A DNA stretch of 64,000 nucleotides from a virus, in IMG/VR virus record IMGVR_UViG_3300042301_003793. One strand, given 5' to 3'. The notes under the pieces were generated by a model that made no database searches, had not been told where the DNA came from, and saw nothing but the letters and a program-made list of their open reading frames with translations. This document shows, one piece after another, positions 9,363-64,000 of this stretch; position 1 is the first letter of the stretch; each line of letters opens with the position of its first letter. A program made the translations under genes and the position numbers.

Positions 9363-10064
9363 ATGATTAATATTCCAATAACAAAAATTTTATTTCTAGA
9401 TATTGAAACTGTTGGTGGTTGTCCAGATTTTGAATCCTGTCAAAAGTTTAGTCCAGAAATTGCGGACCAGTTTAATAAATATTTTGATTGGTTTTTAAAA
9501 AGATTTCCAGAAGACAATGGTTTAACAAAAGACGAAGTTTTTACAAAAAGAGCGGCACTTGTTCCAGAGTTTGCAAAAATTGTTTGTGTATCTGTTGCAT
9601 TTGTTTTAGATAACGGCGAAACAAAAAAACAATCTTTTTCTGGTGAAGATGAAAAAAAACTATTAAAAGAAGTTAGAACATTACTTGATAGATGTGAAAA
9701 CCTTGGGTTTTATCTTTGCGGTCATAACTTAAAGAATTTTGATATTCCGATGCTTGCAAAAAGAATGATTATAAATGGAATCCGCCCCTCAAAAATTCTT
9801 CCGTCTTATGATACAAAACCTTGGGAAATAAAAGCAATTGATACAAAAGAAATTTGGCAGTATGGTTCTTATACATCAATAGGTTCTTTAGATTTATTAT
9901 GTTCTTGTCTTAATATACCAACACCAAAGGACGGTGAAATAACTGGTGCTAATGTACATTCTGCATACTGGGAAGAACAAAAAATAAAAGAAATTACAGA
10001 ATACTGTGAAAAAGATGTGGAGGTATTAATCGAAGCAATAATGAAATTAAAAAGTTTAGAATGA
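9363..10064 (+). CDS. PolB-like 3'-5' exonuclease (DEDD family)
   Basis: ExoI FLDIET, ExoII GHNLKNFDIP, ExoIII YCEKDV motifs. Confidence 0.8.
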   Translation: MINIPITKILFLDIETVGGCPDFESCQKFSPEIADQFNKYFDWFLKRFPEDNGLTKDEVFTKRAALVPEFAKIVCVSVAFVLDNGETKKQSFSGEDEKKLLKEVRTLLDRCENLGFYLCGHNLKNFDIPMLAKRMIINGIRPSKILPSYDTKPWEIKAIDTKEIWQYGSYTSIGSLDLLCSCLNIPTPKDGEITGANVHSAYWEEQKIKEITEYCEKDVEVLIEAIMKLKSLE

Positions 10065-58200: not shown

Positions 58201-58938
58201 TTATTGATTCATAGATAATTTCTTATCTATCAATTCTGTTGGTATATTATATAGTTTTTCTATATAACCATTTCTTCTAAGTAGTTTAAAAACCAAATTT
58301 TCAAGGGACATTTCCCCACCTTTCTCTAATCCGCAGCTTCTAAACTTTTTAAGTTTTTCTTTATATTTTTTTACAATTGATTTTATTTCGTCTGGACTTT
58401 CATCTTTGATATTATCAACAACACCGTCTATAATATTCATCCATTGTTTTGATTTTTCTTTAATTAAGTTTTTATCAATATTTCTCATTTCTTCTTTCTT
58501 TGGTTCATTAACCCACATATCGTAAAGAATTGAATATACACCAGAACTAAATGCTACTTCAGTTTCGTCTTGAACAAAGCACTCAACATCATAACCAAAC
58601 AATTTTATATTATGTTTTTGGTTAAAAACTATTTTTTTTAAATCAAAAAATTCAACATATAATTCTTTTGTGTTTTCAGGAAATTGAGAATAGTTTAGAA
58701 CAATATGTAAATCAACATCAGAATATTTTGACCAATTATAGTTAGTCAAAGAACCAATCATTATTATATCTGTAATTAGGACATCTATACCTAAAAAATC
58801 TATAAACAAATTTGAAACTTCTAATAATTTTTCTCTAACTTCTGAATTTATTTTGTAACTTTTACCTTTTTTATCCCAGATTTTAGAATTAAGTTCGTCT
58901 TGTGTCTCAAAACTTTTTAAAATTTCCGAATTATTCAT
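58201..58938 (-). CDS. Pol-beta superfamily nucleotidyltransferase
   Basis: MIGSLTNYNWSKYSDVDLHIV (GS...DxD) and downstream DVECF. Confidence 0.75.
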   Translation of the reverse strand: MNNSEILKSFETQDELNSKIWDKKGKSYKINSEVREKLLEVSNLFIDFLGIDVLITDIIMIGSLTNYNWSKYSDVDLHIVLNYSQFPENTKELYVEFFDLKKIVFNQKHNIKLFGYDVECFVQDETEVAFSSGVYSILYDMWVNEPKKEEMRNIDKNLIKEKSKQWMNIIDGVVDNIKDESPDEIKSIVKKYKEKLKKFRSCGLEKGGEMSLENLVFKLLRRNGYIEKLYNIPTELIDKKLSMNQ

Positions 58939-58962: not shown

Positions 58963-59208
58963 TTAACTTAATTTCTTATACTTAAAAGCTTTTGAAATGT
59001 TTGTATTAAAAAACGAACCTTGTGATTTTGCTGATCTAAATGAAGTGTAAGTTTGGTGTGGGACATCTTCATATTCGTATTTCATACCGTTTTTAAATTC
59101 TGTAATCATTTTTTTTGTCTCGGTATCATATTCAGTTCTAACGATATTTGAAGACTCAACTTCATTTATGATTTTTGTTCCTTTAATTTCTTCTTTAGTA
59201 ATTGCCAT
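58963..59208 (-). CDS. KTSC-domain protein
   Basis: SSNI..EYD...FKNG..YEY..VP...F.SA.SQGSFFN..I. Confidence 0.9.
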   Translation of the reverse strand: MAITKEEIKGTKIINEVESSNIVRTEYDTETKKMITEFKNGMKYEYEDVPHQTYTSFRSAKSQGSFFNTNISKAFKYKKLS

Positions 59209-59242: not shown

Positions 59243-59266
59243 AAAAATCCACCCTTTTGGGGTGGA
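59243..59266 (-). terminator. Intrinsic terminator
   Basis: Minus strand TCCACCC-CAAAA-GGGTGGA hairpin then TTTTTGTTTT. Confidence 0.8.
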
Positions 59267-59271
59267 CCTTG

Positions 59272-59643
59272 TTATTTTAGGGAGTTGATTTTGTCTCTTA
59301 GTTCTATCGCCTTTTCAAAGTTCTGGGTTTTAATACATTCTTCCAGTTCTTTATTAAGCTTACTTATTTTTTCTTTGTTTTGTTCTAGATTTTTAATCTT
59401 ATCCCTCAACTCCACAGCCTCTTCAAAATTCTGTTCATCAACAGCCATTTCAAGTTTTTGTTTTAATAAATCTAATTCATCTAATTTATTTAAGTCTCCT
59501 TTTACATTTGTAATGTAAGTAAATGTAATCGAACCATCTTCCGATTTGTAAGTTCTTTTTTCAAGGTTATTTAAACCACCAAAGAATGGATTTTCTGAAT
59601 TAAACAATTCGTTAAAAAGTTTATCAAAGTTTCTACCAAACAT
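59272..59643 (-). CDS. Twin UvrB/UvrC (UVR) motif protein
   Basis: KLEMAVDEQNFEEAVELRDKI and ELEECIKTQNFEKAIELRDKI. Confidence 0.85.
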   Translation of the reverse strand: MFGRNFDKLFNELFNSENPFFGGLNNLEKRTYKSEDGSITFTYITNVKGDLNKLDELDLLKQKLEMAVDEQNFEEAVELRDKIKNLEQNKEKISKLNKELEECIKTQNFEKAIELRDKINSLK

Positions 59644-59708
59644 AATTTTATTTTTTTATAAGTTTATTTTGGTTTATTTTTGACGAATTTTATACCAAAA
59701 CAAAAAAA

Positions 59709-59743
59709 ACTGACAAAATGTCAGTATATCTGACATAAAGTCA
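59709..59743. promoter_or_regulatory. Tandem palindromic operator TGAC-N5-GTCA x2
   Basis: ACTGACA-AAA-TGTCAGT (59709-59725) and TGACATAAAGTCA (59731-59743), 20 bp apart, between divergent UVR and clpC genes. Confidence 0.65.
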
Positions 59744-59747
59744 AATA

Positions 59748-59776
59748 TTGACTACGAACCTATTTATGTCTAAAAT
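59748..59776 (+). promoter_or_regulatory. Sigma70-like promoter for clpC
   Basis: TTGACT-17 nt-TAAAAT, 17 nt before ATG; could be chance in AT-rich DNA. Confidence 0.45.
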
Positions 59777-59793
59777 TAAATAAAAAATTAAAT

Positions 59794-61854
59794 ATGGCTA
59801 TAGAATTTGTAGATGACGGTGATAAGGGTAAAAAGAAAGATGGTGGTACCCCAGTTTTAGATAATTTCAGTAAGGATTTGATTAAACTAGCAGAACAAGG
59901 AAAACTAGATCCAGTAATTGGAAGACAAAAAGAAATCCTACGTATTGCTCAAGTATTATCTAGAAGAAAAAAAAATAATCCAATTATTATTGGTGAACCT
60001 GGTGCTGGTAAAACGGCAATTGTGGAAGGTTTAGCTATGATGATTCACGCTGGTGAATGCCCAAAAAACTTGGCGGATAAACGTATTGTGTCTTTAGATA
60101 TTAATTCTATTGTTGCTGGTACAAAATATCGCGGACAATTTGAGGAAAGAATGAAGGTTATAATTGAAGAGTTACAAACAAGCCCAAACATTATAATCTT
60201 TATTGATGAGATACACACGATGGTTGGAGCTGGTAATAGTTCTGGTTCTTTAGATGCTTCAAACATCTTTAAACCAGCATTATCAAGAGGTGAGATTCAA
60301 TGTATTGGTGCGACAACTCTTGATGAATATAGAAAACATTTTGAAAAAGATGGTGCATTAGAAAGAAGATTTCAAAAAATCATTGTTGACCCATCAACAA
60401 AACAAGAAACTTTTGAGATTCTAAAACAAAGTAAGGATAAATACGAAGAACACCACAAAGTTAACTATACAGATGAATCACTTTGGTTGTGTGTTGAGTT
60501 AGCAGATAGGTATATTACAGACCGTGAATTTCCAGATAAAGCATTTGATATTTTAGATGAGGTTGGTTCACGTATGCAAATAGATATTAAACTTCCAGAA
60601 CATATTGAAAAATTAAAACAAGAAGCTTCAGATATTAAACAAGAAAAAGCAGATGTTATTAAAAAACAAAAATATGAAATGGCTGCAGAACTTCGTGACC
60701 GTGAAAAAAATATCTTGATGAAACTTGACGAAGAAAAAAAGAAGTTTGAGGAAGGGTTGAGAACTAGTAAACGTGGTATTCCAGAAGATTTAATTTATGA
60801 GGTTGTATCAAATATGACTAAAATACCAGTAAGTAAAATTAATATTGATGAAAAAAATTCACTCGTTAATTTGGAAGATTCTTTAAATAGTTACGTAATT
60901 GGTCAGGATGAAGCTGTTAAAAAAATATCAAAAGCAATCAGAAGAAATAGGGTTGGTATTAAAGACCCAAATAGACCAATTGGTTCATTTATATTTCTAG
61001 GCTCAACTGGTGTTGGTAAAACATTTTTAGCTAAAAAACTGGCAAAAGAAATTTTTGGTAGTGAAGATAGTTTGATTCGTGTTGATATGTCTGAATACCA
61101 AGAAAAACACACCATCTCAAGACTTATTGGTTCTCCTCCAGGATATGTTGGTCACGAAGAAGGTGGACAGTTAACAGAACAAGTAAAAAATAAACCATAC
61201 TCTGTTATTCTTTTTGATGAAATTGAAAAGGCAAATAAAGATATTTTTGCTACATTACTTCAAATGTTAGATGATGGACATATGACGGATGGTCTTGGTA
61301 GAAAAATTAATTTTAAAAACTGTTTGATTATTATGACTTCAAACATTGGGGTTAGAAAAGTTCAAGATTTTGGAAGTGGTGTTGGATTCAAAACAAATAA
61401 TAATAGTGATGCAGTCCAGGAAGAGTATAAAAGAGATGTTTTGAAAAAAGAGTTGCGTAAGTTTTTTGCACCAGAATTTTTAAATAGAATTGACGATGTT
61501 GTTATTTTTAATTCTTTAGTAAAAGAACACATTGATAAAATTGTAAAACTAGAAATTGATAAACTTATTGATAGATTAATAGCAATGAAATATAAAGTTT
61601 CTTATGAATCGTCTGTTATTGATTTAATCGCCAAAGTTGGTTTTGATGAACAATATGGTGCTAGACCAATTAAACGTGCAATACAGGATAAAATAGAGGA
61701 TCTTATTTCTGAAAAAATATTAACAAGTGAAGTCTTGGAAGAAAAAGAATATATGTTATTTGTAAAAGGAGAAGGTGAAGACCAAACAATAGAAATTGAA
61801 GATAGGACAAAACCAGAACCAAAGAAAAAAGGTAGAAAGAAAAAGGAGGATTAA
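59794..61854 (+). CDS. clpC: ClpC-type AAA+ unfoldase lacking N-terminal domain
   Basis: GEPGAGKT/IFIDEIH and GSTGVGKT/LFDEIEK; short UVR-type M-domain (QKYEMAAELRD); VGF ClpP-docking loop; starts ~18 aa before D1. Confidence 0.9.
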   Translation: MAIEFVDDGDKGKKKDGGTPVLDNFSKDLIKLAEQGKLDPVIGRQKEILRIAQVLSRRKKNNPIIIGEPGAGKTAIVEGLAMMIHAGECPKNLADKRIVSLDINSIVAGTKYRGQFEERMKVIIEELQTSPNIIIFIDEIHTMVGAGNSSGSLDASNIFKPALSRGEIQCIGATTLDEYRKHFEKDGALERRFQKIIVDPSTKQETFEILKQSKDKYEEHHKVNYTDESLWLCVELADRYITDREFPDKAFDILDEVGSRMQIDIKLPEHIEKLKQEASDIKQEKADVIKKQKYEMAAELRDREKNILMKLDEEKKKFEEGLRTSKRGIPEDLIYEVVSNMTKIPVSKINIDEKNSLVNLEDSLNSYVIGQDEAVKKISKAIRRNRVGIKDPNRPIGSFIFLGSTGVGKTFLAKKLAKEIFGSEDSLIRVDMSEYQEKHTISRLIGSPPGYVGHEEGGQLTEQVKNKPYSVILFDEIEKANKDIFATLLQMLDDGHMTDGLGRKINFKNCLIIMTSNIGVRKVQDFGSGVGFKTNNNSDAVQEEYKRDVLKKELRKFFAPEFLNRIDDVVIFNSLVKEHIDKIVKLEIDKLIDRLIAMKYKVSYESSVIDLIAKVGFDEQYGARPIKRAIQDKIEDLISEKILTSEVLEEKEYMLFVKGEGEDQTIEIEDRTKPEPKKKGRKKKED

Positions 61855-61868
61855 AACCCTCCTTTTTT
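61840..61868. terminator. Bidirectional intrinsic terminator
   Basis: AAAAAGGAGG-ATTAAAAC-CCTCCTTTTT between convergent genes. Confidence 0.85.
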
Positions 61869-61870
61869 TG

Positions 61871-62656
61871 TTAATGTTTAGTATAACCAAGTTCTTCTAT
61901 CATTAGTTTACCAACCTTAATACCGTTATAGGTATCTTCCACAACAACATATTCATTTCTTGTGTGATAGTTGTAATAACCAATTGAAATATTAAAACAG
62001 GATAGACCAAAATTTTGGTTTAACGGAAATATGTCCGTATAGGGGTGTCTGTGGTATTTGGTATCACCTGGAAAGTGCTCGGTAATTAAACGACTTCCGG
62101 TGTTAAAGAAATCAGTATCTCTTTTAAACATTGGTTTATTCATTAAGAACTCGGAAATCATATTGTTTTCTGGTGCATCAAATTGAATCGCATAACCAAT
62201 ATTTGTAAAGAATTTTGGGTCCGCATTAAATGATCCTTTACACCCAGTTTCTTCGGCAACAAAAAAAGCCGCTTTAAGATTGGGTAATTCTTTTAGTAAT
62301 TCAAGACAAGCATATACACCACACTTATCATCACCACCAATACCAGTCGGTTCTCCTTTATCGTTATAGGCTTTAAGGGATAATTTAACCTCTTTTTGTG
62401 CATTTGGTAGTTGTTCCTCAACGACATTAATTGAATCGATTGTATGGACCGTATCTGTGTGTGCCACAACACAAGGGAAGTACTCAATATTTTCGTCGGT
62501 TTGTTTTGTTGCATATATGTTGTAGAAGTTATCAACATAATACGGGATTTTATTTTCATCCAACCATTCTGTGATAAAATCAATCATCAAATCTTCTTGA
62601 TAAGTTTTTGTTGGTATAGACAACACTTGTTTTAATAATTCAAAATTTCTTTCCAT
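61871..62656 (-). CDS. Zn-dependent peptidase (M20/M28/M42 clan)
   Basis: VAHTDTV, GGDDKCG, FFVAEETG, NISIGYY..HT. Confidence 0.85.
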   Translation of the reverse strand: MERNFELLKQVLSIPTKTYQEDLMIDFITEWLDENKIPYYVDNFYNIYATKQTDENIEYFPCVVAHTDTVHTIDSINVVEEQLPNAQKEVKLSLKAYNDKGEPTGIGGDDKCGVYACLELLKELPNLKAAFFVAEETGCKGSFNADPKFFTNIGYAIQFDAPENNMISEFLMNKPMFKRDTDFFNTGSRLITEHFPGDTKYHRHPYTDIFPLNQNFGLSCFNISIGYYNYHTRNEYVVVEDTYNGIKVGKLMIEELGYTKH

Positions 62657-63785: not shown

Positions 63786-64000
63786 GGGGGTGTTTTTGGA
63801 TTTGACAGGTATCGGCTGAGGAATAAGGGCACGTAGGGACTGAGTTAATCTCTTTAAAAACTGACTTAGAAAACAACTGGCAATGTGCTAAACAAAATGG
63901 AAACTCTTGGATTAGTAAGAGGTTCTGAAGTTACTGTAGCTTAAGAAGTTTACGGAAACGGGGGGTCGGCAGACATATAACCTAGCAACAGAAGTCGTAG
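63786..64000 (+). ncRNA. ssrA: tmRNA, 5' part (3' end beyond window)
   Basis: GGGGGTG-TT-TTTGGATTTGAC-AGG matches tmRNA 5' end; pk1-like pairings AGGGA/TCTCT and CTGAGT/ACTTAG; ACAACT-GGC resume context; tag ORF 63879-63944. Confidence 0.9.

Follow-up and report, generated by a model that had tools for sequence, protein, structure and literature searches.

The 64,000-nucleotide stretch of DNA analysed here (IMG/VR virus record IMGVR_UViG_3300042301_003793; referred to as the window) is part of a freshwater jumbo phage of ~300 kb, the relatives of which are mostly from lake metagenomes and the host of which, to judge from sequence relationships, is probably a member of the Bacteroidota. It encodes a ClpC unfoldase without an N-terminal domain (N-domain) and, divergently from it, a small protein with two UVR motifs (twin-UVR protein); both open reading frames (ORFs) are confirmed exactly at the coordinates given in an earlier sequence-only reading (Table 1). 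As shown by sequence comparison, the predicted phage protein is a natural 'delta-N' ClpC, i.e. a two-ring AAA+ unfoldase devoid of the N-domain. The best overall explanation of the pair, which is offered tentatively, is that of a headless motor with an optional cofactor that would hold clients and dock on the M-domain of the motor.

The phage ClpC contains the Pfam domains AAA (residues 64–197), AAA_lid_9 (203–302), AAA_2 (394–568) and ClpB_D2-small (575–652), and Clp_N gives no match. Among solved structures, the top phmmer match is ClpC of Staphylococcus aureus (E 4e-219), in which residues 155–809 of the 818-residue chain are aligned with residues 14–672 of the query; the start of the phage protein corresponds to residue ~142 of S. 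aureus ClpC, which lies in the linker after the N-domain. Aligned motifs include the Walker A and B sequences of both modules (GEPGAGKT, FIDEIH, GSTGVGKT and LFDEIEKA) and the pore loops KYR and GYVG. The sequence-only reading had described a ClpC with both AAA modules, a UVR-type M-domain and the ClpP loop but no N-domain, and this description is borne out by Pfam and by the S. aureus ClpC alignment. The clpC ORF is maximal and is separated from the divergent gene by 150 bp of non-coding DNA, which leaves no possibility of a hidden in-frame N-domain. An N-domain encoded elsewhere, which that reading had named as evidence that would speak against it, is not seen either, as no separate Clp_N domain is found by hidden Markov model (HMM) in five related records, three of which are complete genomes. 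According to PMC10149685, no feature is more diagnostic of ClpC orthologues than the Clp_N repeat domain; by this mark the window protein falls outside the group, but it is placed within it by its AAA+ modules, short M-domain and ClpP loop. The PHROG 4871 profile is matched by the window ClpC only from position 164 on, which indicates that the other phage members of this PHROG have an N-terminal region.

Relatives of this ClpC are encoded at more than 598 loci in IMG/VR, on contigs of up to 321 kb, one of which has direct terminal repeats, while the deposited phage genomes hold no counterpart of the window. All 78 distinct full-length phage homologues are 650–719 residues long and lack the N-domain; 78 of the 80 nearest cellular proteins have ~160–230 extra N-terminal residues, and of the remaining two one is cut by a contig end and the other is mis-parsed. 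On these alignments, the loss of the N-domain is a trait of the whole phage lineage. The M-domain aligns with residues ~406–470 of S. aureus ClpC with a single one-residue gap. Its tip (292-QKYEMAAELRD-302; positions 60667–60699) carries the aromatic residue Tyr294, and Y/F294, A297, A298, L300, R301 and D302 are conserved in the 78 phage and 80 Bacteroidota sequences, residue 294 being tyrosine in 74 of the phage proteins and phenylalanine in four. In the relatives this stretch scores 20–25 bits against Pfam UVR (cut-off 21.5). In the ClpP-docking loop, F526, G527, G529, G531 and F532 are invariant in the same 78 phage and 80 cellular sequences, and the form G-[VIM]-G-F is found in every one of the 78 phage proteins.

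The nearest cellular ClpCs are almost all from Bacteroidota (55–60% identity). Bacteroidota ClpCs score 800–846 bits and the ClpCs of Firmicutes and Actinobacteria in the PDB score 682–733 bits; for this comparison of bit scores, the cellular genomes were scanned with motif patterns favouring Bacteroidota-like sequences. Bacteroidota are accordingly inferred to be the likely donors of the phage ClpC as well as the hosts of the phage.

In a number of relatives, a naturally split intein divides clpC at the Walker A loop (L182:1088-4839, as well as loci L183–L185, L253, L191, L193 and L194). The N-terminal piece ends in GEPG|CVLGDTWIEV..., with an IntN of only ~25 residues, and the C-terminal piece has a 133-residue IntC ending in ...VSHN|CGKT; in L182 and L253 a 402-residue ORF lies between the two pieces. 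The window clpC has an intact GEPGAGKT and contains no intein.

In cellular ClpC, the N-domain is the binding site of adaptors and phospho-arginine substrates, and it also stabilises the resting state. S. aureus ClpC from which this domain was removed loses the resting-state spiral; its hexamers are planar and bind ClpP with no need of an adaptor, but they are joined head-to-head by their M-domains into ring dimers and rods and are proteolytically silent, while mutation of the tip residue Phe436 makes the truncated protein very active and very toxic, and able to degrade ssrA-tagged GFP (PMC12583610). The phage protein shares with this construct (EMBO J 2025, PMC12583610) the linker, D1, a short M-domain with a tip aromatic residue, D2 with the ClpP loop and the missing N-domain, and it starts at the position equivalent to the linker that remains in the construct. 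It differs in being a natural and strongly conserved family with candidate partners of its own, in being only ~55–60% identical to cellular ClpC, and in having tyrosine instead of phenylalanine at the tip. With its M-domain and the aromatic residue at the tip intact, the phage motor would bind ClpP without an adaptor, and yet head-to-head contacts of its M-domains would restrain it. Judged by this analogy, it should be free of control through the N-domain but not of control through the M-domain.

In agreement with the sequence-only reading, no clpP is detected in the window by tblastn with two phage ClpPs (best E 0.16), and the CLP_protease HMM finds nothing in a 60.7-kb record encoding a 99%-identical ClpC. 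The window ends 2 kb past clpC, and in a sister clade (ClpC ~70% identical to that of the window) clpP is located 20–32 kb downstream of clpC, so that its absence from the window says little by itself. Full-length ClpP is encoded in five records of this sister clade (CLP_protease HMM, 172–196 bits), and two of the sequences keep the serine (in GMAASMG or GMCASMG), histidine and aspartate residues. In the clade of the window, ClpP is found neither in four genomes of 93–100% estimated completeness (G002, 304 kb; G016, 291 kb; G017, 257 kb; G019, 274 kb) nor in seven partial records, including a 127-kb contig with a 96%-identical ClpC, and partial records of three other ClpC clades (G011, G013 and G018) give no ClpP either. 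The use of host ClpP, as proposed in the sequence-only reading, is a reasonable interpretation for the clade of the window, since the docking loop is invariant though these four genomes have no ClpP; it does not extend to the sister clade, which carries its own ClpP, and the motor is thus not intrinsically a borrower. It is very probable that the motor acts together with a ClpP peptidase, contacted via the invariant GVGF loops, the peptidase being that of the host in the clade of the window and phage-encoded in the sister clade.

A motor that acts with no peptidase at all, serving as chaperone or unfoldase in virion assembly or in the remodelling of host proteins, with the small protein as its co-chaperone, is quite improbable. 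A role of this kind, as translocase or assembly aid, has been proposed for the ClpA and ClpX of jumbo phages (PMC7824862), and it would suit the proximity of clpC to the head genes in the window (major head protein, portal and large terminase), the lack of ClpP in this clade, and the small heat-shock protein (sHSP) encoded next to clpC in sister phages, which fits a disaggregase. However, the G-x-G-F loop, which ClpB-type disaggregases lack, is invariant even in ClpP-less lineages, the M-domain is of the short ClpC type and not of the long ClpB type, and the sister clade has added a ClpP of its own.

The twin-UVR protein matches Pfam UVR (PF02151) in two stretches with 65.8 bits (cut-off 21.5), in keeping with the UVR signature F-E-x-A-x-x-L-R-D of a helical hairpin. 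In its hairpins F73, R80, D81 and R116 are invariant, and F109 and D117 nearly so. AlphaFold2 (AF2) predicts helices at residues 56–69, 73–88, 90–105 and 109–122 with a predicted local distance difference test score (pLDDT) of ~80 and, with low confidence, a helix at residues 4–15 and strands at residues 27–33 and 40–46 in the front part. The family comprises 211 clusters at 50% identity that score E<=1e-10; the similar Atlas clusters are all viral, and as far as taxon labels go the family is therefore virus-only, its distant members having been checked through IMG/VR loci. Longer members that begin with part of a glycosyltransferase or methyltransferase resemble chimeras or artefacts of gene calling, and no functional clue comes from them. 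Against solved structures, the family profile scores 30 bits with McsA, 28 bits with the M-domain of S. aureus ClpC and 23 bits with the C-terminus of UvrB. The likeness between the UVR motifs and the M-domain tip, which was pointed out in the sequence-only reading, is real in sequence terms, as the M-domain score indicates, but largely reflects the common UVR signature.

The JGI name of the twin-UVR protein, McsA, is rejected, as the score with NF053706 (46 bits) falls short of the cut-off (210) and the model is matched only at positions 131–176 of 182. The identity with McsA is further contradicted by the single cysteine residue of the protein, which leaves it without zinc-finger cysteines, and by the lack of McsB (ATP-gua_Ptrans) in five related records. 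The MecA domain (PF05389) is not among the six families in the Pfam scan of the protein, and the alpha-crystallin domain (PF00011) gives no match to it.

In all 76 UVR-seeded IMG/VR loci with room upstream, clpC is directly divergent from the UVR gene, with a gap of 148–247 bp in 66 of them and insertions in the rest. Among 80 ClpC-seeded loci, 76 are scorable, and the slot upstream of clpC is occupied by the UVR gene in 32, by an Hsp20 gene in 17, by neither in 27 and by both in none. The Hsp20 gene (PF00011, 46–56 bits) has the same position and orientation as the UVR gene; that it can stand in for the latter suggests a cofactor of the chaperone type and not a master switch. When the ClpC tree is rooted with eight Bacteroidota sequences, the phage clades at its base have the UVR gene, which looks ancestral, with repeated loss or replacement. 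Relocation of the gene in UVR-less phages is rejected, since two complete UVR-less genomes have no copy elsewhere.

In some phages, the slot is occupied by small genes of a third or fourth type, including one of 95–102 residues starting with ME.W and others of 117 and 157 residues (L019:9632-9919, L021:9604-9912, L043:8617-8916, L039/L040 ~9551-9905 and L048:9456-9929). Two of these, from L019 and L048, were scanned against Pfam and gave no match.

The intergenic region between the two genes contains two copies of a palindrome (Table 1), which may be an operator common to the twin-UVR gene and clpC. It occurs 60–110 bp upstream of clpC in 58 of 60 loci with the UVR gene, in 9 of the 17 with an sHSP gene and in 4 of the remaining 26, against a background of 0.018 per 260 bp. 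None of 79 regions upstream of cellular (Bacteroidota) clpC contains it, and there is thus no sign of a borrowed host clpC operator. A scan of sigma-70-type promoters performed no better than on shuffled sequences.

The front ~45 residues of the twin-UVR family consist of a helix F-D-x-L-F-N-E-L-F, a variable linker and the segment K-S-x-D-G-S-x-x-x-T-Y; the alignment matches them to the N-terminal part of the slot sHSPs, including the first strands (F-N-D-L-F-D-x-F-F, followed by T-K-D-G-A-Y-L-F-F). By hhalign this similarity has a P of 0.0013 over 39 columns and a probability of only 18.5%. When ~12,600 six-frame ORFs of the phage loci are ranked with an HMM of the front end, sHSPs are first, second and fifth and 10 of the 17 sHSPs are in the top 35, each single E-value being 0.013 or weaker. 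An Atlas search with the N-terminal 55 residues gave no usable feature match. The twin-UVR protein may tentatively be regarded as an sHSP derivative in which the alpha-crystallin domain would have been replaced by two UVR hairpins. The N-terminal region of sHSPs is their main client-binding part.

The twin-UVR protein is rather likely to be a ClpC cofactor of some kind, and direct docking on the M-domain is plausible, though slightly less likely than not. In the mechanism proposed here, its sHSP-like N-terminal region would hold non-native or chosen clients, and the two UVR hairpins would pair with the M-domain of ClpC, the only peripheral domain left; through this pairing, the clients would be delivered and the M-domain contacts that repress the motor would face competition, a role comparable to that of MecA for full-length ClpC. 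The cofactor would tune the motor rather than enable it, because the slot in sister phages holds an ordinary sHSP or is empty. That the UVR protein switches or targets the motor had been suggested in the sequence-only reading; gene order, the shared putative operator and motif similarity are what speaks for this, while the gene is dispensable and can be replaced by Hsp20. Across phages, the UVR gene is always next to clpC in the loci with room upstream, but it is absent from 44 of the 76 scorable ClpC loci. A bolder version, which is unlikely, is that of a new class of Hsp100 adaptor derived from an sHSP, which would dock on the M-domain alone, break the repressing contacts and feed clients to host ClpP, bypassing the host adaptors; these clients might include products tagged by the transfer-messenger RNA (tmRNA) of the phage.

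Several results weigh against the reading of the twin-UVR protein as an M-domain-docking cofactor. Apart from the frequent absence of the UVR gene, its presence changes state 11–17 times on the ClpC tree, with no fewer than 11 losses, as expected of a dispensable gene, and the two complete UVR-less genomes hold no displaced copy. No ClpC column tracks the presence of the UVR gene in a coevolution scan, in which at best 4–5 of 12 independent pairs agree and the power is low. All the loci are from one syntenic phage lineage, so that the adjacency of the two genes is for the most part a matter of descent and does not count as independent evidence. The likeness of the N-terminal region to sHSPs is weak and may be due in part to composition. 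The whole AF2 model is mediocre (pLDDT 66, predicted template-modelling score 0.38); a Foldseek search of the PDB with it gave no match at E<=0.001, and VIA-align matched it to generic helical bundles only (Z<=7.2, with McsA/McsB at Z 5.0). The helical part of the model resembles generic four-helix bundles, and its hairpins might pair with each other instead of with ClpC. The UVR signature itself is generic, the first repeat being more ClpC/McsA-like and the second closest to the UvrB C-terminus.

UVR motifs mediate the pairing of UvrB with UvrC, and in an alternative reading the twin-UVR protein would be a decoy for host UVR-motif proteins, either UvrB/UvrC, blocking excision repair of phage DNA, or the M-domain of host ClpC, which it would activate or jam; its position next to the phage clpC would then be inherited gene order only. 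Besides the likeness of the second repeat to UvrB, NCBIfam models of both UvrB and UvrC match the protein, the M-domains of host-type Bacteroidota ClpCs share the tip signature, and the single syntenic lineage is compatible with an inherited position. This alternative is nevertheless unlikely, as the UVR gene is never found away from clpC, shares a dedicated putative operator with it, and alternates with a chaperone partner rather than with a DNA-repair or host-takeover gene, and as its best solved matches are McsA and the ClpC M-domain.

An opposite effect on the motor is also conceivable, namely that of a brake, in which the protein would mimic the M-domain and, until removed by a signal, either keep the head-to-head assembly in its repressed state or cap the ring, or that of a timer, in which it would be a degraded substrate. 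M-domain contacts are known to repress ClpC (PMC12583610) and a deregulated delta-N ClpC is toxic, which would make a brake useful early in infection; the operator common to both genes would suit either version, and the flexible, low-confidence N-terminus could enter the pore. An essential safety brake is hard to reconcile with the many phages that have no UVR gene and with the empty slots in some of them, and replacement by an sHSP suggests client handling and not inhibition, which makes both versions improbable. The reading as an optional, client-holding cofactor is retained as the preferred one.

Compared with known systems, the pair resembles MecA and McsA/McsB, which work with ClpC-ClpP in Bacillus and Staphylococcus, in that a small partner would activate ClpC and deliver substrates via the M-domain, and the UVR motif of McsA is the best solved match to the twin-UVR protein. 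In contrast, MecA and McsB also need the N-domain, which the phage ClpC does not have, and the twin-UVR protein has neither a MecA domain nor zinc fingers. Gp53 of phage SPO1 is an adaptor-like protein modulating host ClpCP (PMC6873191) and is likewise a small phage protein proposed to redirect ClpC-dependent proteolysis, but it acts on the full-length ClpC of the host, whereas the window phage brings a truncated motor, and no sequence relation between the two proteins is detected. In plastids, UVR-domain proteins and the UVR-bearing adaptor CLPF associate with CLPC1 (PMC8889267), on which they have been trapped; they provide another case of UVR-motif proteins associated with a ClpC-type chaperone, but have YccV, DUF151 or EXECUTER architectures and belong to a eukaryotic organelle with an N-domain-bearing ClpC. 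The cooperation of sHSPs with Hsp100 disaggregases is paralleled by the Hsp20 gene in the same slot of sister phages and by the weak resemblance of its N-terminal region to that of the twin-UVR protein, although the latter has no alpha-crystallin domain. The Clp components already catalogued in jumbo phages are ClpP, ClpS, ClpA and ClpX (PMC7824862), and in the literature searched there is no account of a natural N-domain-less ClpC with a twin-UVR or sHSP companion, nor of a tmRNA combined with ClpC in a phage.

ClpC is a drug target whose control by the N- and M-domains has been worked out only recently, and a delta-N form previously built in the laboratory exists naturally in abundant lake phages, with the ClpP loop and M-domain tip kept. 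The three states of the slot (twin-UVR, sHSP and empty) combined with the two states of ClpP (own and none) provide natural comparisons for Hsp100 regulation by the M-domain only. Should binding of the small protein to the M-domain prove true, ClpC could be switched on or off with a compact tool of natural origin, and the pair would illustrate how a phage takes control of host proteolysis by means of a motor that it encodes itself.

Table 1. Positions of the features of the clpC region in the 64,000-nucleotide window.
Feature	Position	Strand	Basis
Terminator-like hairpin after twin-UVR gene	59244..59270	-	sequence scan
Twin-UVR protein, 123 aa, virus-only family	59272..59643	-	two Pfam UVR stretches
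Two UVR helical hairpins (residues 55-89 and 90-123)	59275..59481	-	AF2, pLDDT ~80
N-terminal region (residues 1-50): Phe-rich helix FDKLFNELF, then beta-hairpin KSEDGSITFTY	59494..59643	-	AF2 (low confidence), hhalign, HMM
Palindrome TGACA-N3-TGTCA, two copies, the second with one mismatch	59711..59743	.	divergent intergenic region; unique in the window
N-domain-less ClpC unfoldase, 686 aa	59794..61854	+	Pfam, phmmer, PHROG 4871
ClpC-type short M-domain (~residues 268-328)	60595..60777	+	S. aureus ClpC alignment, UVR match in relatives
ClpP-docking loop FGSGVGF (residues 526-532)	61369..61389	+	aligns with S. aureus ClpC loop region
Terminator-like hairpin after clpC	61838..61869	+	sequence scan
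Short M20/M42-like peptidase, 261 aa (context only)	61871..62656	-	weak Pfam M20/M42; PHROG 4191 'peptidase', E 6e-36
Phage tmRNA, 5' part, cut by window end (context only)	63786..64000	+	Rfam RF00023, 32 bits, E 2.4e-10

The order of genes around clpC is kept in the relatives and comprises orf497, a nucleotidyltransferase-like gene, a KTSC gene, the variable slot, clpC, an M20-like peptidase gene and orf349, beyond which a tmRNA, a GOLLD RNA and tRNAs are located. In the window, the KTSC-domain protein (58963-59208, minus strand; 64 bits) and the nucleotidyltransferase-like protein (58201-58938, minus strand; PHROG 36119) are encoded next to the twin-UVR gene, and the two genes flank the slot in essentially all relatives. 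The M20/M42-like peptidase gene is oriented convergently to clpC, and synteny is kept in nearly all relatives; its product might trim peptides released by Clp proteolysis.

The tmRNA starts ~2 kb 3' of clpC, and a whole copy scoring 50–118 bits is present at the same place in the relatives (e.g. L081:5466-5856(-), L001:14640-15047 and L031:14030-14432). A possible tag frame at positions 63879-63941 of the window encodes GNVLNKMETLGLVRGSEVTVA, which differs from the usual tags ending in ...ALAA; the tags called by ARAGORN in two relatives are different ones, and in other relatives it does not detect the gene. Recognition of such a tag by the pore of the headless ClpC is speculative. In every relative checked, a full-length GOLLD RNA (302–329 bits) follows the tmRNA and precedes a tRNA cluster (L081:4717-5129 and L001:15379-15785, as well as L005, L015, L031 and L083), and a GOLLD RNA should accordingly lie just past the 3' end of the window.

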